Below are positions 5,338-14,613 of a DNA stretch of 14,613 nucleotides, one piece after another; position 1 is the first letter of the stretch; each line of letters begins with the position of its first letter. Below the pieces are notes generated by a model. That model made no database searches, had not been told where the DNA came from, and worked only from the letters and a program-made list of their open reading frames with translations. The translations under genes and the position numbers were made by a program. The DNA comes from a virus (taxonomy: Duplodnaviria > Heunggongvirae > Uroviricota > Caudoviricetes), in IMG/VR virus record IMGVR_UViG_2778261465_000005, positions 1 to 14,613 of that record, one strand, 5' to 3'.

Positions 5338-5441
5338 AACAACCTCCGTGGTTAATCTGAATCAAGATTAAAACTATGGTTGTTTTTAGTCAACAACCAT
5401 TTTCGTTTGATGTAATAAAACCCTGGTTGTACATTTGGTCT
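5338..5441. promoter_or_regulatory. OR-like divergent control region between the cro-like and cI-like genes, with a 25-bp palindrome ATGGTTGTT-N7-AACAACCAT (5376..5400)
   Basis: Perfect 9-bp inverted arms seen directly; AACAAC/GGTTGT motifs recur here and downstream of the cassette terminator; no Shine-Dalgarno ahead of the repressor ATG. Confidence 0.5.
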
Positions 5442-6131
5442 ATGAAAACAACACTCTCAGAAAGACTTAAAGAAGCCAGATTAGCGCGAGGCCTTACACA
5501 AAAGGCGCTTGGGGATTTGGTCGGGGTTAGCCAAGCTGCTATTCAGAAAATCGAAACAGGGAAAGCTAACCAAACAACTAAAATCGTGGAGATCGCGAAC
5601 GCTTTGGGTGTGCGCGCAGAATGGTTATCTTCTGGCGTTGGAAATATGTCAGACAGTACAGTGCAACCAATACAATCAACTGTCAGCCATTCCAAATACT
5701 TTAAGATTGACGTTCTTGATATAGAAGTGAGTGCCGGGCCGGGAGTCATCAACCGTGAGTTTGTAGAAGTTCTACGCTCGGTTGAGTACTCGTTTGACGA
5801 TGCTCGTCACATGTTCGATGGTAGGAAGGCAGAAAATATCCGCATCATTAACGTGCGTGGTGACAGCATGTCAGGAACGATCGAACCAGGTGATCTGCTG
5901 TTCGTTGATATCACGGTTAAATCTTTCGACGGTGATGGTATCTATGCGTTTCTGTATGACGACACAGCCCATGTAAAGCGCCTGCAAATGATGAAGGATA
6001 AGCTGCTGGTTATCTCTGATAACAAAAGCTACTCACCGTGGGACCCGATCGAGAAAGATGAGATGAACCGGGTATTTATCTTCGGGAAAGTTATTGGGAG
6101 CATGCCGCAGACGTATAGGAAGCATGGATAG
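5442..6131 (+). CDS. Prophage repressor, cI-like (N-terminal XRE-type HTH plus C-terminal S24 LexA-like autopeptidase); not lambda immunity
   Basis: MKTTLSERLKEARLARGLTQKALGDLVGVSQAAIQKIE is an HTH; the C-terminus has GDSM (catalytic Ser) and a downstream VKRL (Lys) typical of S24 peptidases. The track ORF begins at 5376, but the HTH starts at the ATG at 5442. Confidence 0.85.
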   Translation: MKTTLSERLKEARLARGLTQKALGDLVGVSQAAIQKIETGKANQTTKIVEIANALGVRAEWLSSGVGNMSDSTVQPIQSTVSHSKYFKIDVLDIEVSAGPGVINREFVEVLRSVEYSFDDARHMFDGRKAENIRIINVRGDSMSGTIEPGDLLFVDITVKSFDGDGIYAFLYDDTAHVKRLQMMKDKLLVISDNKSYSPWDPIEKDEMNRVFIFGKVIGSMPQTYRKHG

Positions 6132-6199: not shown

Positions 6200-7273
6200 A
6201 TGGAGAACTTAATGGATACTTTAAAATATGAGAAATTCTCTGATTTTGATCACAATGACCCATTTTTTGACTCTTTAAAAAAAGATTATAAAGAGTTTCC
6301 TCTTTGGTTAGAAAAAAAAGCCAGAGAAGGAGAATCAGCTTATGTGCTCTATGATGACAAGCATAAAATCGAAGGTTTTATGTATCTAAAAGAAAATGAT
6401 GATGCAAATGACATTAATCCAGCGCTCCCACCAGGACGTCATCTAAAGATAGGAACATTCAAATTTGAATCTAAAGGCACCCTTCGCGGACAACGATTTC
6501 TAAAAAAAGCGTTTGACCATGCATTTTCATCAAAATCTGATGATATTTATGTTACTGTTTTCGACAAACACGTCCATCTAATAAAACTTTTCCAAACGTA
6601 CGGATTTTACATTCATGGTGAAAAAGAAACACATAACGGGAAAGAGTTTGTATATGCGAGGTCTTTGCATGAGCCTTATGGTGATATTTTATTAGATTAC
6701 CCTCGAATAATGACATCAAGGGCCAACAAATATTTACTGGCGATTTATCCCGAATATCACACTAGACTATTCCCTGATTCAAAACTTGTAAATGAATCAC
6801 CAGATATTGTCAAAGATATATCCCATGCTAACAGCATTCATAAAATTTACATATGTGGAATGCGTTCTGTGATGGGAATGAAAAGAGGAGATATCATTGT
6901 CATCTATAGAACCGGAGACAAAAAAGGGCCAGCTCGCTATCGTTCTGTAGCCAGTACATTATGTGTAGTTGAGAGCGTAAAAAATATTTCTGAATTTTTA
7001 AGCGAAGATAGTTTTGTAGACTATTGTATTCGTTTTAGCGTATTTTCTGAAGATGAACTCAGAAAAATCTATAAAGAACGTCGATACCCTTTCATTATAA
7101 GATTCACATACAATCTGTCTTTGCCAAAGAGACCCAATCGTGCTATTTTAATAGATCATGTGGGGCTAAATGGTTCGCGTGCATTCCGATGGAGTCACTT
7201 TAAACTCACAAATGAGCAGTTCTTAAAGATCATCGAGTTAGGCAAGATAAATGAAAGTTTTATTATCCATTAA
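6200..7273 (+). CDS. Hypothetical 357-aa protein, AT-rich cargo gene; tentatively an N-terminal GNAT-like fold with an unassigned C-terminal domain (possibly PUA-like)
   Basis: Directly downstream of the repressor on the same strand with no terminator between; markedly lower GC than its flanks. An alternative start at 6212 has a better Shine-Dalgarno (GGAGA). Domain guesses are from motif impression only. Confidence 0.6.
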   Translation: MENLMDTLKYEKFSDFDHNDPFFDSLKKDYKEFPLWLEKKAREGESAYVLYDDKHKIEGFMYLKENDDANDINPALPPGRHLKIGTFKFESKGTLRGQRFLKKAFDHAFSSKSDDIYVTVFDKHVHLIKLFQTYGFYIHGEKETHNGKEFVYARSLHEPYGDILLDYPRIMTSRANKYLLAIYPEYHTRLFPDSKLVNESPDIVKDISHANSIHKIYICGMRSVMGMKRGDIIVIYRTGDKKGPARYRSVASTLCVVESVKNISEFLSEDSFVDYCIRFSVFSEDELRKIYKERRYPFIIRFTYNLSLPKRPNRAILIDHVGLNGSRAFRWSHFKLTNEQFLKIIELGKINESFIIH

Positions 7274-7628
7274 GCCTGAGTTTGCAGAAAAAATATTGAA
7301 CGGAACAAAGCGGTTCGAGTTTCGTAAAGGTATATTCAAAAATCCGCAAATTAGCACCGTTGTTATTTATGCCACGATGCCATTAGGTAAAGTTGTTGGT
7401 CAATTCCGTATTGAATCAATACTAAGTGACGAACCGGAATCTCTTTGGAAAAAGACGGAAAAACACGCAGGTATTTCTAAGCAATTTTATGACTCATATT
7501 ATTCAGGTAGAGAAAAGGCCTACGCAATAAAAATTGGTGAAGTGGAAAGATATAAAGAACCAATTCCTATCTCTGCTCTAGGGAGTAATATTAAGCCACC
7601 ACAATCATATCTTTACCTACCTGCGTAA
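7251..7628 (+). CDS. ASCH-like (PUA-superfamily) small protein, 125 aa; second gene of the cargo cassette
   Basis: N-terminus MKVLLSIKPEFAEKILNGTKRFEFRK resembles the ASCH-domain signature; start overlaps the upstream gene by 23 nt; AT-rich. Confidence 0.55.
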   Translation: MKVLLSIKPEFAEKILNGTKRFEFRKGIFKNPQISTVVIYATMPLGKVVGQFRIESILSDEPESLWKKTEKHAGISKQFYDSYYSGREKAYAIKIGEVERYKEPIPISALGSNIKPPQSYLYLPA

Positions 7629-8687: not shown

Positions 8688-9473
8688 ATGAGTACAGCAC
8701 TCGCAACGCTGGCTGGGAAGCTGGCTGAACGTGTCGGCATGGATTCTGTCGACCCACAGGAACTGATCACCACTCTTCGCCAGACGGCATTTAAAGGTGA
8801 TGCCAGCGATGCGCAGTTCATCGCATTACTGATCGTTGCCAACCAGTACGGCCTTAATCCATGGACGAAAGAAATTTACGCCTTTCCTGATAAGCAGAAT
8901 GGCATCGTTCCGGTGGTGGGCGTTGATGGCTGGTCCCGCATCATCAATGAAAACCAGCAGTTTGATGGCATGGACTTTGAGCAGGACAATGAATCCTGTA
9001 CATGCCGGATTTACCGCAAGGACCGCAATCATCCGATCTGCGTTACCGAGTGGATGGATGAATGCCGCCGCGAACCATTCAAAACCCGCGAAGGCAGAGA
9101 AATTACGGGGCCGTGGCAGTCGCATCCCAAACGGATGTTACGGCATAAAGCCATGATTCAGTGTGCCCGTCTGGCCTTCGGATTTGCGGGTATCTATGAC
9201 AAGGATGAAGCCGAGCGCATTGTCGAAAATACCGCATACACTGCAGAACGTCAGCCGGAACGCGACATCACTCCGGTTAACGATGAAACCATGCAGGAGA
9301 TTAACACTCTGCTGATTGCCCTGGACAAAACATGGGATGACGACTTATTGCCGCTCTGTTCCCAGATATTTCGCCGCGACATTCGCGCATCGTCAGAACT
9401 GACACAGGCCGAAGCAGTGAAAGCTCTTGGATTCCTGAAACAGAAAGCCTCTGAACAGAAGGTGGCTGCATGA
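8688..9473 (+). CDS. bet: Bet (Red-beta single-strand annealing recombinase)
   Basis: 261-aa product [38 protein letters not shown]... matches my recollection of lambda Bet. Confidence 0.92.
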
Positions 9474-10150
9474 CACCGGACATTATCCTGCAGCGTACCG
9501 GGATCGACGTGAGAGCTGTCGAACAGGGGGATGATGCGTGGCACAAATTACGGCTCGGCGTCATCACCGCTTCAGAAGTTCACAACGTGATAGCAAAGCC
9601 CCGCTCAGGAAAGAAGTGGTCTGACATGAAAATGTCCTACTTCCACACCCTGCTGGCTGAGGTTTGCACCGGTGTGGCTCCGGAAGTTAATGCTAAAGCG
9701 CTGGCCTGGGGAAAACAGTACGAGAACGACGCCAGAACCCTGTTTGAGTTCACTTCCGGCGTAAATGTTATTGAATCCCCGATCATCTATCGCGACGAAA
9801 GTATGCGCACCGCCTGCTCTCCCGATGGTTTATGCAGTGACGGCAATGGCCTTGAGCTGAAATGCCCGTTTACCTCCCGGGATTTCATGAAGTTCCGGCT
9901 CGGTGGTTTCGAGGCCATAAAGTCGGCTTACATGGCCCAGGTGCAGTACAGCATGTGGGTGACGCGAAAAGATGCCTGGTACTTTGCCAACTATGACCCG
10001 CGTATGAAGCGTGAAGGCCTGCATTATGTCGTGGTTGAGCGGGATGAAAAGTACATGGCGAGTTTTGACGAGATGGTGCCGGAGTTCATCGAAAAAATGG
10101 ACGAGGCACTGGCTGAAATTGGTTTTGCATTTGGGGAGCAATGGCGATGA
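9470..10150 (+). CDS. exo: Exo (Red-alpha 5'-3' exonuclease)
   Basis: 226-aa product [40 protein letters not shown]... matches my recollection of lambda Exo; overlaps the bet stop. Confidence 0.92.
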
Positions 10151-10308
10151 AGCATCCTCACGATAATATCCGGGTAGGCACGATCACTTTCGTCTACTCC
10201 GTTACAAAGCGAGGCTGGGTATTTCCCGGCCTTTCTGTTATCCGAAATCCCCTGAAAGCACAGCGGCTGGCTGAGGAGATAAATAATAAACGGGGGCTGT
10301 ATGACTGA
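10147..10308 (+). CDS. Small hypothetical protein (53 aa), translationally coupled between exo and the methyltransferase
   Basis: ATG overlaps the exo stop (ATGA) and its TGA falls just inside the methyltransferase start; [53 protein letters not shown]. Below the ORF-track length cutoff. Confidence 0.4.
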
Positions 10309-10858
10309 TTTCACCGGAAGCAATACTCCTGCCGAACATCGCGACAGCTGGCGCACACCACCAGAGATTTTTGCTGCGCTTAATGCAGAGTTCGTTTTTC
10401 AACTTGATGCTGCCGCCAGCGAAAAAAACCGACTATGTCGGCTTTTTATCTCACAGGAGCAGAACACATTAACCACTTCATGGCCTGAAGCAATGGGATA
10501 TGCCTCTGGTTATGTCTGGTTGAATCCACCATACAGCAATATTTCCCCTTTTGTGAAAAAGGCAGCCACTGAAAACAAATTCAGTAGTGTGGGATGTGTA
10601 ATGTTATTGCCTGCTGACACATCTGTCGGATGGTTTCATGAAGCGATACAAACCGCCAGTGAGGTCAGATTCATCACGGCAGGACGACTGGCATTTATTA
10701 ACCCACTCACTGAGAAACCCGTCAGTGGAAATAATAAAGGCTCGATGCTCATTATCTGGCACCCATACCCCCGTACACACTGCCACTTTACGACCGTTGA
10801 TCGTGGAGAGTTGATGGCGTTCGGCTCAAGGATTCTTGCCCGTCGGGAGGCTGCATGA
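10301..10858 (+). CDS. Phage DNA N6-adenine methyltransferase (Dam-like orphan MTase)
   Basis: 185-aa product with the NPPY catalytic motif (VWLNPPYSNI), typical of amino-methyltransferases; size fits the phage N6-adenine MTase family. Confidence 0.75.
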   Translation: MTDFTGSNTPAEHRDSWRTPPEIFAALNAEFVFQLDAAASEKNRLCRLFISQEQNTLTTSWPEAMGYASGYVWLNPPYSNISPFVKKAATENKFSSVGCVMLLPADTSVGWFHEAIQTASEVRFITAGRLAFINPLTEKPVSGNNKGSMLIIWHPYPRTHCHFTTVDRGELMAFGSRILARREAA

Positions 10859-10938
10859 CAACCACGGAATGCATTTTTCTGGCAGCGGGCTTCATATTCT
10901 GTGTGCTTATGCTTGCCGACATGGGACTTGTTCAATGA
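10855..10938 (+). CDS. Possible 27-aa hydrophobic micro-protein (MTTTECIFLAAGFIFCVLMLADMGLVQ)
   Basis: ATGA overlaps at both ends (with the MTase stop and with the next ORF's ATG at 10935); a single hydrophobic helix. Could be a chance ORF. Confidence 0.25.
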   Translation: MTTTECIFLAAGFIFCVLMLADMGLVQ

Positions 10939-11150
10939 CACCTCAGCAGGAAAACGCCCTTCGCAGCATTGCCCGTCAGGCTAATTCTGAAATCAAAAAA
11001 GCCAGACAGCAGTTTCCGGATAAAAACGTCGATGACATTTGCCGTAGCGTACTAAAGAAGCACCGCGAAACGGTAACGCTGATGGGATTCACACCGACTC
11101 ATTTAAGCCTGGCGATCGGCATGTTAAACGGCGTCTTTAAGGAACGGTGA
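10935..11150 (+). CDS. Hypothetical protein (71 aa from the ATG at 10935; the track ORF from 10836 uses a TTG start)
   Basis: ORF in the leftward early operon; no family recognised. Confidence 0.45.
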   Translation: MTPQQENALRSIARQANSEIKKARQQFPDKNVDDICRSVLKKHRETVTLMGFTPTHLSLAIGMLNGVFKER

Positions 11151-11173
11151 ACATGAAAAGCAAAATCATCAGG

Positions 11174-11198
11174 GAGCTACAGGCTCCTTTTTTATTGT
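11174..11198 (+). terminator. Weak intrinsic-terminator-like hairpin (GGAGC-tacag-GCTCC followed by TTTTTT)
   Basis: Seen directly; short stem, so possibly an attenuator rather than a full stop; it sits inside a possible 29-aa ORF (11153..11242). Confidence 0.3.
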
Positions 11199-11248
11199 TC
11201 GCATTCATCCTCAAGCGTATTAACCAACAATTCAGGGATTAATGGAAG

Positions 11249-11467
11249 ATGGCAGACATCATTGATTCAGCATCAGAAATCGAAGAATTACAGCGCAATA
11301 CAGCAATAAAAATGCGTCGTCTGAACTACCAGACTGTATCCGCAACTCATTGTTGTGAGTGTGGCGATCCGATAGATGAGCGAAGACGCCTGGCTGTTCA
11401 GGGTTGTCGGACTTGTGCAAGTTGCCAGGAGGAGATCGAACTTAAGAACAAACAATGGGGACTGTGA
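11249..11467 (+). CDS. TraR/DksA-family C4 zinc-finger protein (72 aa)
   Basis: CxxC...CxxC pattern (CCECGDPIDERRRLAVQGCRTCASC) and size typical of phage TraR-like proteins. Confidence 0.65.
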   Translation: MADIIDSASEIEELQRNTAIKMRRLNYQTVSATHCCECGDPIDERRRLAVQGCRTCASCQEEIELKNKQWGL

Positions 11468-11514
11468 TGGCCTCAAAGCAGCAAATTTCAACATCGTCCA
11501 ACTGAGGTGTAAAA

Positions 11515-11793
11515 ATGTTCAGAATCATTTTTCCTAACACCTGGTACGTCGACCACCACGGCACTCCCTGCAAAATCCTGCGTTCTACCCACAACAAAGT
11601 TCACTACATCCGAAAAGGCAGAACATGTATCGCCAGCATGTTCCGCTTTAATCATGACTTTGAACCTGTGAATAAAGCTGATGCAGATCGGATAGCAGAA
11701 GAGATCGAAACGGCAGAACACATTAAGAAGTTACGTGACATGCGTTCAAAAAGCAGAGGTAACCATGGAATCATACAGCCTCACACTCGATGA
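11515..11793 (+). CDS. Hypothetical protein (92 aa) upstream of xis
   Basis: GAGGTG Shine-Dalgarno; 3' end overlaps the xis start; no family recognised. Confidence 0.4.
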   Translation: MFRIIFPNTWYVDHHGTPCKILRSTHNKVHYIRKGRTCIASMFRFNHDFEPVNKADADRIAEEIETAEHIKKLRDMRSKSRGNHGIIQPHTR

Positions 11794-12115
11794 GGCCTGT
11801 CAGTTTCTTAAGATATCCAGACCAACCGCCACCAACTGGATACGAACAGGCCGCCTACAGGCAACACGCAAAGACCCCACTAAACCAAAATCTCCTTACC
11901 TCACAACGCGACAAGCCTGCATTGCGGCGCTTCAGTCTCCGCTGCATACTATCAAGGTGAGCGCGGGTGATGGCATAACAGAGGAAAGAAAATGTCACTC
12001 TTCCGCAGAAGTGAAATATGGTACGCCAGTTTCACATTGCCGAACGGTAAAAGATTTAAACAGTCTCTTGGAACAAAGGACAAAAGGCAGGCGACAGAGC
12101 TCCATGACAAGCTAA
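11765..12115 (+). CDS. xis: Excisionase (P22-type Xis, 116 aa)
   Basis: [38 protein letters not shown]... has an HTH and matches my recollection of P22 Xis; directly upstream of and overlapping int. Confidence 0.75.
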
Positions 12116-13155
12116 AGGCTGAAGCATGGCGGGTCAGCAAACTTGGTGAAATACCTGATATGACGTTTGAGGAAGCGTGTGTCAGGTGGCTCGAAGAGAA
12201 AGCACATAAGAAATCACTGGACGATGACAAAAGCCGGATCGGATTCTGGCTTCAACATTTCGCAGGAATGCAACTAAGAGACATTACTGAATCAAAAATT
12301 TATTCAGCAATGCAGAAAATGACGAACCGGCGTCATGAGGAAAACTGGAAACTCAGGGCAGAAGCATGCAGAAAAAAAGGGAAACCTGTTCCAGAATACA
12401 CGCCAAAACCAGCGTCCGTTGCAACGAAGGCTACGCATCTTTCATTTATAAAGGCCCTGCTAAGAGCCGCAGAGCGTGAATGGAAAATGCTCGATAAGGC
12501 ACCAATTATTAAAGTGCCTCAACCAAAGAATAAACGGATCCGCTGGCTGGAGCCCCATGAAGCACAAAGGCTGATTGATGAATGTCCGGAGCCATTAAAG
12601 TCTGTTGTTGAATTTGCACTGGCAACAGGCTTAAGACGCTCGAACATCATCAACCTTGAATGGCAACAAATAGATATGCAGCGCCGGGTGGCATGGATAA
12701 ACCCGGAAGAGAGTAAATCAAACCGCGCAATTGGCGTTGCGCTGAATGATACTGCATGTCGCGTATTGAAAAAACAAATCGGTAATCATCACTGTTGGGT
12801 ATTTGTGTACAAGGAAAGCTGTACCAAACCAGACGGAACGAAAGCGCCAACAGTAAGGAAGATGCGGTATGACGCAAACACAGCCTGGAAAGCGGCTCTG
12901 AGACGGGCTGGTATTGATGATTTCAGATTTCACGACTTGAGACACACCTGGGCAAGTTGGCTGGTTCAAGCCGGAGTCCCGTTGTCAGTGTTACAGGAAA
13001 TGGGAGGCTGGGAGTCTATCGAAATGGTTCGTCGATATGCTCACCTTGCACCTAATCACCTTACCGAACACGCACGGCAAATAGACTCGATCCTGAACCC
13101 ATCGGTCCCAAATTTGTCCCAGTCAAAAAATAAGGAAGGTACTAATGATGTGTAA
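11992..13155 (+). CDS. int: Tyrosine integrase (P22-type Int, thrW-specific)
   Basis: 387 aa; catalytic motifs [11 protein letters not shown] and [15 protein letters not shown]; the N-terminus [40 protein letters not shown] resembles P22 Int as I recall it; sits next to thrW, the known P22 attachment site. Confidence 0.9.
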
Positions 13156-13169
13156 CTTATTGATTTAAA

Positions 13170-13215
13170 TGGTGCCGATAATAGGAGTCGAACCTACGAC
13201 CTTCGCATTACGAAT
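13170..13215. other. Inferred attR (prophage-host junction) overlapping the 3' part of thrW
   Basis: Integrase is adjacent to the tRNA 3' end; phages integrating in tRNA genes regenerate the 3' end from attP. Exact core limits cannot be set without the attL copy. Confidence 0.4.
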
Positions 13216-13245
13216 GCGCTGCTCTACCAACTGAGCTATATCGGC
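13170..13245 (-). tRNA. thrW: tRNA-Thr (anticodon CGU)
   Basis: Reverse complement reads GCCGATATAGCTCAGTTGGTAGAGCAGCGCATTCGTAATGCGAAGGTCGTAGGTTCGACTCCTATTATCGGCACCA: cloverleaf with anticodon CGT and encoded CCA. Confidence 0.9.
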
Positions 13246-13359: not shown

Positions 13360-14613
13360 TTACGCACGAATGGTGTAATCACCAATGCCGATCCACTTGT
13401 AAGTGGTCAGTGCTTCCAGCCCCATTGGGCCACGCGCGTGGAGTTTTTGTGTGCTTACCGCCACTTCCGCACCCAGTCCAAACTGGCCGCCGTCGGTAAA
13501 ACGCGTAGAGGCGTTAACATAAACAGCGGACGAATCCACTTCGTTAACAAAACGCTGGGCGTTGCGCATATCGCGGGTCAGGATCGCATCGGAGTGTTGT
13601 GTGCCGTGTTCACGAATATGGGCGATGGCATCGTCAAGATCGCTGACGATTTTGACGTTCAAATCTAATGACAGAAACTCATCGTCATACTCTTCGGCTT
13701 TAACAGCAACCACCTTCGCAGGGCCTGCCTGCAACTGCGCCAGTGCAGCTGCATCAGCGTGTAACGTCACGCCACTTTCCGCCATTTGTTTGCTTAATGC
13801 GGGCAGGAAGCTATCGGCGATATTTTTATTCACCAGCAACGTTTCTACCGTATTACACGTGCTCGGACGCTGAGTTTTCGCGTTGACGATTACTTTCAGG
13901 GCTTCAGCGATCTCTGCACTTTCATCAACATAAATATGGCATACGCCTATACCACCAGTGATCACCGGGATTGTCGACTGCTCGCGGCACAGTTTATGCA
14001 AACCAGCTCCACCACGCGGGATCAGCATGTCGATGTATTTATCCATACGCAGCATTTCACTGACCAGCGCACGGTCAGGATTATCAATCGCCTGCACGGC
14101 ACCCGCCGGTAAGCCACAGGATTTCAGGGCGTCCTGAATCACCGCCACCGTTGCCGCGTTAGTGCGACAGGTTTCTTTGCCACCACGCAGGATCACCGCA
14201 TTACCGGTTTTCAGGCACAGCGAAGCGACATCAACCGTCACGTTCGGGCGCGCTTCATAAATCACGCCAATAACCCCCAGCGGTACGCGACGACGCTCAA
14301 GACGCAGGCCGCTGTCCAGTACGCCGCCATCGATTACCTGCCCCACCGGATCGGCGAGGTTGCACACCTGACGTACATCGTCGGCAATGCCTTTCAGCCG
14401 TGCGGGCGTCAGTGCCAGACGGTCAAGCATCGCTTCGCTAAGGCCATTGGCTCGCGCGTCAGCAACATCCTGGGCGTTAGCGTTGAGGATGATTTCGCTT
14501 TGTGCTTCCAGTTCATCGGCGATTTTTTCCAGCACGCGATTTTTTTCGCGGCTGGAGAGTTGCGCTAATTTATACGAGGCTTGCTTCGCGGCAATGCCCA
14601 TTTGTTCCAGCAT
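13360..14613 (-). CDS. proA: Gamma-glutamyl phosphate reductase (host gene, complete, 417 aa)
   Basis: Product [50 protein letters not shown]... matches E. coli ProA as I recall it; the start codon is the last three bases of the window. Confidence 0.95.

Follow-up and report, generated by a model that had tools for sequence, protein, structure and literature searches.

A Methylase Cassette and a Probable 27-Codon Gene in the exo-xis Segment of a Lambda-Like Escherichia coli Prophage

Introduction

Termination-reinitiation at ATGA or TGATG stop/start overlaps, for example at trpB-trpA, is a general feature of bacterial and phage operons. Among the small hydrophobic proteins known from E. coli and E. 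coli prophages are the type I toxins Ibs, ShoB, and TisB and host-acting peptides of the lambda Kil type. The Dam methyltransferases of phages T1 and HP1 act on GATC. In lambdoid phages, the exo-xis region has been the subject of work in the Wegrzyn and Donaldson laboratories. In lambda and the Stx phages this region follows the order orf60a-orf63-orf61-orf73-ea22 and is already much studied (PMC8614690, PMC6213356); the function of lambda Orf73 has been described (PMC9239242), and published models of Orf61 suggest a three-helix homeodomain-like fold (PMC8614690). With regard to phage methylases, M.EcoVT2Dam is reported to target GATC (PMC6602927), and M.Phi93DAM methylates GATC experimentally and blocks DpnII (PMC4190342).

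Here, we analyzed a stretch of 14,613 nucleotides (the window; IMG/VR record IMGVR_UViG_2778261465_000005), for which an earlier note, made from the sequence letters, had described a chain of small overlapping ORFs around an orphan adenine methyltransferase.

Results

The interval 10147–11150 corresponds to the exo-xis stretch of the early-left (pL) operon in a lambda-like E. coli prophage, where an orphan Dam-type methylase takes the place of one small gene. Public annotation was matched at 99.4–100% DNA identity in phage PhiR30_1 and 244 E. coli genomes, and the region is syntenic with lambda and VT2-Sakai. All genes are located on the plus strand in the order bet, exo, orf60a, methylase, 27-aa ORF, orf61, 29-aa ORF, and orf73. 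The first of these, bet (8688–9473), encodes a RecT-family annealing protein (PF03837, E = 2.7e-33) and is annotated as Bet in PhiR30_1, and exo (9470–10150), annotated as exonuclease, encodes the lambda exonuclease with a YqaJ domain (PF09588, E = 4.3e-30). They are followed by an orf60a homolog (10147–10308; DUF1317, 53 aa; PF07026, E = 2.8e-33; phrog_1998), a phage N6-adenine DNA methyltransferase of 185 aa (10301–10858; PF05869, TIGR01712), a hydrophobic micro-ORF of 27 codons (10855–10938; MTTTECIFLAAGFIFCVLMLADMGLVQ), an orf61 homolog of 71 aa (10935–11150; phrog_303), a 29-aa ORF (11153–11242), and an orf73 homolog with a TraR/DksA-type zinc finger (11249–11467; PF01258, E = 2.8e-9). 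On the pL strand, the segment sits between exo and xis/int and contains homologs of orf60a, orf61, and orf73 in order, whereas orf63 (DUF1382) is not found between orf60a and orf61, where the methylase cassette is located instead, which makes the locus a variant of the conserved block. The order of exo, orf60a, micro-ORF, orf61, and orf73, the operon, and its overlapping junctions are the same as in the lambda and Stx phage exo-xis regions, with ~97–99% DNA identity outside the cassette. In contrast to these phages, ea22 and ea8.5 are missing, and a DUF4222 gene and an excisionase-like gene come next. Furthermore, orf61 is intact here, whereas that of lambda PaPa is truncated by an A7 frameshift.

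Two of the small ORFs deserve a closer description. The 53-aa ORF, which the earlier note had counted among ORFs below typical annotation cutoffs, is lambda orf60a (DUF1317) and is routinely annotated. It would comprise 55 aa if started at the alternative ATG at 10141, and the PF07026 match begins at residue 3 of that form; PGAP picks the 53-aa form, and lambda orf60a has an identical ATGA start. The 29-aa ORF, located directly upstream of orf73, would comprise 31 aa with GTG 11147, a codon overlapping the orf61 stop, as its start. It is 59% identical to a 30-aa counterpart in an Enterobacter prophage (L236), where it is ATGA-coupled to a DUF1382 gene, and it may correspond to the lambda “orf2313” (cf. 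PMC8614690). It contains a terminator-like hairpin (11171–11189) followed by a T-run, and its coding signal is weak (7:10, P = 0.08).

The overlaps between the genes were read straight from the sequence and the ORF list. The exo stop (TGA 10148–10150) overlaps the ATG of orf60a at 10147, the methylase stop (10856–10858) overlaps the start of the 27-aa ORF (ATGA 10855–10858), and the stop of the latter (10936–10938) overlaps the ATG of orf61 (ATGA 10935–10938), in each case as ATGA. Between the orf60a stop (TGA 10306–10308) and the methylase ATG at 10301 there is an 8-nt overlap, ATGACTGA. Thus, the four overlaps that the earlier note had listed all exist where it placed them, but the one at 10301–10308 is not of the 4-nt ATGA type to which it had been assigned. 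A fifth overlap is present upstream, between bet and exo (ATGA 9470–9473). In 8688–11250, an ATGA links a pair of ORFs, each of 25 aa or more, five times, compared to a mean of 1.3 in 1000 dinucleotide shuffles, 11 of which reach five; one of the five counted junctions (9153) is a spurious off-frame match inside bet, and the test is weak. The stronger case lies in the linked ORFs themselves, which are real genes (DUF1317, E = 2.8e-33; Dam, PF05869, E = 2.3e-56, and TIGR01712, 165.6 bits). Prophages from Enterobacter and further enterobacteria whose gene content differs show the same run of 4-nt overlaps in this operon, and orf61 homologs in relatives are ATGA- or GTGA-coupled directly to whichever gene precedes them.

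A Shine-Dalgarno sequence, GGGAGG (10845–10850, plus strand), lies within the 3′ end of the methylase gene, 4 nt 5′ of the micro-ORF ATG. With a duplex energy of -10.3 kcal/mol, the Shine-Dalgarno sequence of the micro-ORF is the second strongest of the operon, compared to -3.9 kcal/mol for orf61. Translational coupling, as proposed in the earlier note, is a reasonable reading given genuine overlaps and a single same-strand operon, in which the weak orf61 signal comes after the strong one of the micro-ORF. Every stop either overlaps or directly adjoins the start that follows, so that a ribosome could finish one cistron and restart on the next by termination-reinitiation. The terminal ATGA of the 27-aa ORF falls on the orf61 start and the ribosome binding site of orf61 is weak, so that the ORF would at least relay ribosomes to orf61; its peptide sequence is probably selected, too. 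This arrangement shares with coupling of the trpB-trpA type the 4-nt same-strand overlaps and a cistron with weak Shine-Dalgarno sequence (orf61) behind a well-initiated one. It differs in that the relay cistron has only 27 codons and is apparently under amino acid-level selection, and in that coupling is here a prediction from sequence.

The micro-ORF is present in lambda (31008–30925), 933W, and VT2-Sakai, and in 3144 of 5426 complete E. coli genomes (58%); in E. coli, copies of the 84-nt ORF number ~4200. In lambda and VT2-Sakai it is concealed beneath the annotated N-terminal extension of orf61, and the exact peptide has been deposited solely as “hypothetical protein.” No match to the peptide was obtained in Pfam, NCBIfam, or PHROGs, tblastn searches of phages with E-values up to 10 yielded only copies of at least 92% identity in Escherichia lambdoids, and the peptide sequence was not found in a literature search. 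A passage of a review that cites lambda ribosome profiling (Liu et al. 2013) names only a 7-aa and a 31-aa ORF as extra ORFs in the region, and not one of 27 aa (PMC8614690). The micro-ORF is missing in divergent prophages and in locus L106, which carries an orf61 variant. In Escherichia sp. E1V33 (L006) the 5′ end is 14 nt shorter, the micro-ORF is broken, and the coupled ATG lies in the orf61 frame.

Among 322 loci, the micro-ORF frame shows 14 synonymous and 12 nonsynonymous alleles (457 and 42 occurrences, respectively) at an expected allele ratio of 6:20 (P = 1.0e-3), whereby these 26 variant alleles stem from closely related, non-independent sequences with micro-ORF copies of at least 92% identity. 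For the other two frames of the region, P-values of 0.62 and 0.76 were obtained. The frame is kept at 322 of 324 loci, 15 of the 26 variant alleles affect third codon positions (P = 0.009), and each of the six variants found in 39 or more loci is synonymous. The synonymous excess equals that of orf61 and orf73. The suggestion of the earlier note that this ORF is expressed finds support in this coding-type substitution pattern, which is confined to its own frame. The 27-aa ORF is probably a genuine protein-coding gene, and its allele pattern is best explained by a conserved gene of Escherichia lambdoids under purifying selection.

It could also be that the 27 codons are a mere spacer, which hands ribosomes over from orf63 or the methylase gene to orf61, and that the peptide is functionless and degraded. 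With an ATGA on either side, the micro-ORF fits the gap precisely, the orf61 Shine-Dalgarno sequence is weak, and relatives couple orf61 straight to the upstream gene in the absence of a micro-ORF, which is young and lineage-restricted; in addition, a variant shortened by one codon (Q27*) is tolerated in five loci. However, for a relay alone an open frame would suffice, but missense alleles are depleted as strongly as in orf61, and the most frequent of them occurs in only 11 loci, compared to up to 137 loci for synonymous variants. Thus, we regard a spacer with a functionless peptide as unlikely and favor a selected, protein-coding micro-ORF. An RNA element in its place was considered and set aside: the sequence from 10835 to 10975 folds no better than shuffled sequences (z = +0.75), and the only Rfam match was a tRNA elsewhere.

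The 27-aa peptide is hydrophobic (GRAVY 1.62), with a core of 15 residues, CIFLAAGFIFCVLML, of a mean hydropathy of 2.87. It contains neither Lys nor Arg but two acidic residues, with an Asp at position 22, which is uncommon among small proteins that insert into membranes. With less than 30 aa and a hydrophobic 15-residue stretch it resembles Ibs, ShoB, TisB, and the Kil-type peptides, from which it differs in its lack of basic residues. Nor does a cognate antisense promoter stand out: three promoter-like sites were found in a search for antisense and internal promoters, where 2.5 were expected, and no antisense one was convincing. Unlike stand-alone toxin loci, the ORF is embedded in an operon, and it has no sequence similarity to any family in the three profile collections mentioned above. 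The “membrane-acting peptide” of the earlier note is only a guess, as the peptide is hydrophobic but lacks a basic residue, and a membrane or toxic role is unsupported.

The start site of orf61 bears directly on the micro-ORF. From sequence comparisons, the true start of orf61 is probably ATG 10935, which gives a protein of 71 aa, and the 93-aa form that begins at ATG 10869 has probably been misannotated. The orf61 genes of lambda, 933W, and VT2-Sakai most probably start 22–32 codons later than in the lambda and VT2-Sakai records. A word-indexed protein search with orf61 returned near-identical E. coli sequences only, and divergent homologs came to light solely in the sequences downstream of methylase homologs. 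Those in L236 and L237 are 27–30% identical and align from M1-T2 (E = 1e-11), and the orf61 variant of L106 has its own Shine-Dalgarno sequence and no upstream extension. If the 27-aa ORF were no gene, the stretch from 10869 to 10935 would lengthen orf61 at its N-terminus to 93 aa (MHFSGSGLHILCAYACRHGTCS-MTPQQ...), which is how the annotations of VT2-Sakai, the PHROG family, and lambda have it. RefSeq orf10 of VT2-Sakai indeed has 93 aa, the annotation of lambda orf61 includes this upstream frame, phrog_303 was built on forms of 93–101 aa, the extension frame is open from 10836, and L006 has an ATGA-coupled ATG with a strong Shine-Dalgarno sequence in this frame. Against this, variation in the extension frame looks neutral (4 synonymous and 15 nonsynonymous alleles, P = 0.76), ATG 10869 has essentially no Shine-Dalgarno sequence (-2.6 kcal/mol), and the divergent homologs as well as the L106 variant begin exactly at Met-Thr. 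In every E. coli genome inspected, PGAP now gives the 71-aa form, and an open frame of 33 codons would be expected by chance ~20% of the time. Moreover, the published AlphaFold and RoseTTAFold models differ only over residues 1–23 (PMC8614690). An N-terminal extension of orf61 in place of the micro-ORF is thus improbable, and we retain the 71-aa start. The product name “ZapA,” which PGAP gives to some orf61 homologs, was rejected, as neither the 71-aa nor the 93-aa form matches any NCBIfam or Pfam model.

Upstream of the micro-ORF, homology to lambda and VT2-Sakai ends after AAACGGGG and restarts at the micro-ORF ATG, with alignment breakpoints at ~10296 and ~10853. The inserted cassette (10296–10852, plus strand) takes the place of lambda orf63 (DUF1382) in the alignment with VT2-Sakai and PhiR30_1, and the last few codons of orf60a come from it. 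The junction GGGAGGC(T/A)GC(A/G)TGA also occurs in the methylase homologs of L236 and L237. Judged from these alignments, the GGGAGG plus ATGA/GTGA junction at the 3′ end is native to the methylase family, and the methylase forms a cassette in place of lambda orf63 that brings along its own Shine-Dalgarno sequence and ATGA junction, which would now drive the 27-aa ORF. A survey of the position revealed ~190 loci with orf63, ~25 with the methylase, and one with a DndB-like gene, whereas L106 carries a 250-aa gene of unknown function there, so that four different cassettes were found. The accessory methylase would accordingly occupy a swap slot that has the 3′ end of orf60a and the micro-ORF ATG as its limits, and that holds orf63 in lambda and the Stx phages.

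The methylase scores 165.6 bits against TIGR01712, above the equivalog cut-off of 97.05, over profile positions 3–165 of 165, and 190.5 bits (E = 2.3e-56) against PF05869 with a cut-off of 28.1. It contains the motifs DAAAS (residues 36–40) and NPPY (residues 75–78), the latter of which is kept in the alignment with the VT2-Sakai enzyme. It is 47% identical to the methyltransferase from the nin region of VT2-Sakai, which we infer to be M.EcoVT2Dam, 39% identical to the phage HP1 homolog, and 36% identical to Phi93_04 (M.Phi93DAM); sequence searches found no relatives in the PDB. Like the phage Dams of the TIGR01712/PF05869 type (M.EcoVT2Dam, phage T1 Dam, HP1 Dam, and M.Phi93DAM), it scores above the equivalog cut-off, falls into the range of ~140–185 aa, has a lone recognizable NPPY motif, is phage-borne, and lacks a restriction partner. 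It differs in its location, which is the exo-xis slot within the pL operon, compared to the nin region in VT2-Sakai and 434 and the packaging module in phi93. It is at most 47% identical to any characterized member, and its specificity is a prediction.

The target is likely the GATC adenine, an extrapolation from 36–47% identity, since three characterized relatives (M.EcoVT2Dam, M.Phi93DAM, and phage T1/HP1 Dam) methylate GATC. The number of GATC sites in the window, 44 compared to 56 expected from its composition, is uninformative. Another DNA specificity or a non-DNA substrate, to which the 36–47% identity, the small genes of unknown function on both sides, and the example of M.EcoPA8orf6770P, an Stx-prophage MT-A70 “DNA adenine methyltransferase” that methylates 16S rRNA together with a small partner protein (PMC10810198), might point, is quite improbable, as that rRNA enzyme belongs to another family (MT-A70, DPPW), the methylase here is a PF05869 protein with NPPY and scores as a TIGR01712 equivalog, and the three characterized PF05869-type enzymes that the literature search yielded all act on GATC, in very distant hosts. 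The rRNA methyltransferase was set aside as a model because of its different family; M.EcoGIX and the enzymes of the ST131 methylome are unrelated to the methylase.

That the methylase has no restriction partner, as the earlier note had stated, agrees with our searches, in which none of the other ORFs of the window (the visible part of the host genome) matched a restriction partner, a nuclease, or a restriction-modification system, and the best PADLOC model was oMTase (“orphan methyltransferase”). As a member of the small phage Dam family with NPPY only, the enzyme would most likely methylate GATC adenines on phage DNA, and possibly on host DNA, after induction or infection. This could shield the DNA from enzymes that cut unmethylated GATC, or could serve to fully methylate fast-replicating phage DNA. 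No sigma-70-like promoter was found on the methylase strand between 9400 and 11600, and by analogy to lambda a methylase in the pL operon should be silent in the lysogen. Hence, the absence of a new adenine methylation motif in lysogen DNA, by which the earlier note proposed to refute its idea, would refute nothing. Since a GATC enzyme would also be invisible in a Dam+ host, such a test of lysogen DNA would be uninformative.

Discussion

Overall, we are fairly confident in reading the locus as an exo-xis operon with a methylase cassette in a swap slot and a coupled, selected 27-aa ORF. The operon, its overlaps, and the orphan Dam-type methylase are mostly ordinary and already known. Beyond textbook material, this part adds little except for a swap slot at the position of orf63, which takes up accessory genes, namely the methylase, a DndB-like gene, and a gene of unknown function. 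The single modest new lead is a probable gene for a small hydrophobic protein in lambda, which would relay ribosomes to orf61.

The further-reaching proposal, to which we give an even chance, is that lambda and the Stx phages carry an unrecognized, selected gene for a 27-aa hydrophobic protein between orf63 and orf61, which has been masked for decades by a mis-set orf61 start and which, itself translated by coupling, in turn licenses the translation of orf61. It would be young, restricted to Escherichia, and of gene-junction origin, and its loss may partly explain delta-orf61 phenotypes. The useful outcome is a probable correction to a model system, in which the vacated 84 nt would be a conserved 27-codon gene in more than half of the complete E. 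coli genomes. The locus would also offer a simple, testable case of a micro-cistron that relays ribosomes between two genes. The later orf61 start bears on the reading of published orf61 deletion and structure-modeling work: if the proposal is true, the altered timing of lysis and lysogeny and the reduced Phi24B adsorption ascribed to “delta-orf61” may partly reflect loss of the micro-ORF.

Operon Identity and Gene Overlaps

Comparison with lambda (NC_001416) and VT2-Sakai identifies the region as the stretch of the pL operon known as exo-xis, which has a literature of its own (PMC8614690, PMC6213356, PMC9239242). Searches against Pfam, NCBIfam, and PHROGs identified bet (RecT) and exo (YqaJ), the 53-aa ORF as DUF1317, i.e., lambda orf60a, and the gene at 10301-10858 (+) as a phage N-6-adenine methyltransferase (PF05869; TIGR01712 equivalog, 165.6 bits with the cut-off at 97), followed further along by a TraR/DksA zinc-finger protein (lambda orf73), a DUF4222 protein, an excisionase-like protein, and an integrase. 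Since the 53-aa ORF is orf60a of the exo-xis region, it is a known and routinely annotated gene, and the earlier note on this DNA overstated the novelty: the overlap chain, orf60a, and this family of methylases had all been described before. Phage PhiR30_1 has 99.4% identity to the 1.1-kb interval, at least 80% of which is present in 244 of 5426 complete E. coli genomes (best matches 100% identity).

According to the sequence and the ORF list, bet and exo overlap at 9470-9473, and exo (9470-10150) stops at TGA 10148-10150, with the next ATG at 10147. The 53-aa ORF (10147-10308, stop TGA 10306-10308) and the methylase ATG at 10301 form an 8-nt overlap, ATGACTGA. The methylase has the ATGA at 10855-10858 in common with the 27-aa ORF (10855-10938), which in turn meets its downstream neighbour in the ATGA at 10935-10938. 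The overlap chain described previously thus lies at the coordinates claimed; the 53-aa ORF/methylase overlap comprises 8 nt and not 4 nt. Five junctions of the ATGA type were observed against 1.3 expected, and 11 of 1000 shuffles reached five. This is a weak test; the better argument is that genuine genes are linked here, and that the 4-nt-overlap architecture of this operon is kept in prophages with different gene content.

An Exchangeable Interval Carrying the Methylase

In the alignment, VT2-Sakai homology stops just past AAACGGGG, the orf60a 3' end, and is back where the 27-aa ORF opens with its ATG. What lambda and the Stx phages have between these breakpoints is orf63 (DUF1382), whereas the window carries the methylase, which by this comparison is a cassette. 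Among the loci fetched, the slot held orf63 in about 190 and the methylase in about 25, and in one each a 355-aa DndB-like (DGQHR) protein (locus L006, 1371-2438; PF14072, E=2e-46; PADLOC DndB) and a 250-aa protein without family match (locus L106, 1741-2493), so that the site may be a hotspot for accessory genes of DNA modification or counter-defence. The 3' end of the methylase, GGGAGGCTGCATGA, encodes RREAA-stop and includes a strong Shine-Dalgarno sequence and the overlapping start. The same junction occurs in 79-84% identical homologs of prophages L236 and L237 (the protein database lists the L236 protein under Enterobacter cloacae), where it is placed to drive whichever gene comes next. 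At the left boundary, a run of G residues at the 3' end of orf60a (AAACGGG[G]n, window 10292-10296; same site in L122, L135, L151, L155, and L180) differs in length between loci, and a change alters the frame and hence the C-terminal tail.

The methylase has its NPPY motif at residues 75-78, and the PDB holds no relative by sequence. Neither a restriction enzyme nor any other R-M component was found within the 14.6-kb window, and the best PADLOC model is "orphan methyltransferase," in agreement with the orphan status assigned before. We infer GATC specificity with moderate confidence, because its relatives include the VT2-Sakai nin-region enzyme (47% identity), taken to be M.EcoVT2Dam with its reported target GATC (PMC6602927), Phi93_04 (M.Phi93DAM; 36% identity), which methylates GATC and protects against DpnII according to SMRT sequencing and DpnI/DpnII digestion (PMC4190342), and HP1 and T1-like phage homologs (39-46% identity). 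The methylase gene is part of the pL operon, and its strand showed no promoter-like site in 9400-11600. By analogy to lambda, expression should come with induction or infection, not in the lysogen. Because of this expected silence, and because methylation by a GATC enzyme would be invisible in a Dam+ host, the proposed search for new methylation in lysogen DNA would not be decisive. A Stx-prophage "DNA adenine methyltransferase" turned out to be a 16S rRNA enzyme (PMC10810198); it serves as a caution only, since it belongs to a different family (MT-A70, DPPW) than the window methylase (PF05869, NPPY).

Coding Frame Downstream of the Methylase

The 84 nt of the 27-aa micro-ORF are not window-specific, as they also occur in lambda (31008-30925), 933W, VT2-Sakai, and 175 phage records, where they open with ATGA on the orf63 stop and close with ATGA on the next start, and in 3144 of 5426 complete E. 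coli genomes. For analysis of the coding frame, 324 loci were gathered via an anchor inside orf61, so that sampling was unbiased toward the micro-ORF, and distinct variant alleles were counted (expected synonymous fraction ~0.24-0.26). The micro-ORF frame had 14:12 synonymous:nonsynonymous alleles (occurrences 457:42; P=1.0e-3), a statistic resting on few, related sequences because the micro-ORF is limited to Escherichia lambdoids with at least 92% identity. The controls orf61 and orf73 gave 25:32 (869:115; P=1.3e-3) and 26:25 (340:268; P=3.6e-5), respectively, and the third frame 6:20 (30:469; P=0.62). All variants present in at least 39 loci are synonymous in the micro-ORF frame, and third codon positions hold 15 of its 26 variant alleles (P=0.009). 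The frame is intact in 322 of the 324 loci, but not in a contig of 1.3x coverage that lacks 1 nt, nor in L006. The suggestion of a real small ORF is supported by these data.

Older annotation of lambda and VT2-Sakai covers this stretch, in another frame, with an N-terminal extension of orf61 (in the window, a 93-aa form from ATG 10869). This reading is doubtful. L006 counts against the micro-ORF: its 5' part is 14 nt shorter, so that the micro-ORF is destroyed and the coupled ATG falls in the orf61 frame. The extension frame varies at 4:15 (17:189; P=0.76). No Shine-Dalgarno sequence precedes ATG 10869 (-2.6 kcal/mol), that of the orf61 ATG being weak (-3.9 kcal/mol) and that of the micro-ORF ATG in the window strong (-10.3 kcal/mol). 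In L106, a 7-nt spacer separates orf61 from the different gene before it, and orf61 has a GAGG of its own and lacks the extension. The L236 and L237 homologs (27-30% identity, E=1e-11) likewise lack it: the alignment begins at Met1-Thr2, and they are ATGA/GTGA-coupled straight to the preceding gene. Some E. coli copies start orf61 with GTG instead of ATG and retain the overlap. Beside the substitution counts, these observations lend independent support to the 71-aa form from ATG 10935, the one given by current PGAP with a 76-nt gap upstream. An RNA-level explanation of the micro-ORF stretch was rejected (fold z=+0.75, no Rfam match).

Within orf61, after ...SEIKK, lambda (30839-31024) has A7 where the window (10935-11150) and the Stx phages have A6; the frameshift truncates the lambda protein (also noted in PMC8614690). 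Lambda's annotated 61-aa "orf61" therefore joins the doubtful extension to the truncated real gene. The PGAP name "cell division protein ZapA" on some orf61 homologs in RefSeq (e.g., L002 2905-3186; protein matches H106 and H108) looks unfounded, as neither the 71-aa nor the 93-aa form has any NCBIfam or Pfam match.

Neighbouring Features

A 29-aa ORF, MKSKIIRELQAPFLLFAFILKRINQQFRD, lies at 11153-11242 (+) just upstream of orf73/TraR (31 aa from GTG 11147, overlapping the orf61 stop) and may be the lambda "orf2313" from ribosome profiling. With a 30-aa, 59% identical counterpart in L236, ATGA-coupled to DUF1382, it is better conserved than orf61 (27-30%). This conservation could be RNA-level, because a terminator-like hairpin and T-run lie within it (11171-11189). 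Two overlapping genes at 6200-7273 (+) and 7251-7628 (+) match the PADLOC candidate defence system PDC-M11 (component A, E=2e-133; component B, with an ASCH domain, E=7e-52), just downstream of a cI-like repressor (5376-6131), the rexAB position in lambda. Directly beyond the integrase (11992-13155), a tRNA gene (13173-13245 (-), 71.8 bits) probably marks the prophage attachment site, followed by an aldehyde-dehydrogenase-family host gene at 13360-14613.

A Candidate 27-aa Protein

The exact peptide occurs in databases only as "hypothetical protein," no paper with its sequence was found in the literature searched, and a review of lambda ribosome profiling names, as extra ORFs of this region, only one of 7 aa and one of 31 aa (PMC8614690), which speaks against the micro-ORF. 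The peptide is hydrophobic (GRAVY 1.62; core CIFLAAGFIFCVLML). Since it has no basic and two acidic residues, membrane insertion is possible but not indicated, and the earlier idea of a membrane-acting peptide stays a guess; a toxin-like role has no support.

The translational coupling proposed before is a reasonable reading of the overlapping stop and start codons at 10855-10858 and 10935-10938. Ribosomes that finish the methylase (orf63 in lambda) at TGA 10856-10858 would reinitiate at the ATG overlapping this stop, helped in the window by GGGAGG 4 nt upstream; after 27 codons they would reach TGA 10936-10938 and reinitiate at the ATG of orf61, which overlaps that stop in turn. As one modest new lead, lambda-type phages probably encode a 27-aa protein masked by the old orf61 annotation. 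If it is real, the published work on orf61 deletions (PMC6213356) and on modelled structures of the 93-aa orf61 (PMC8614690) would have to be re-read accordingly.
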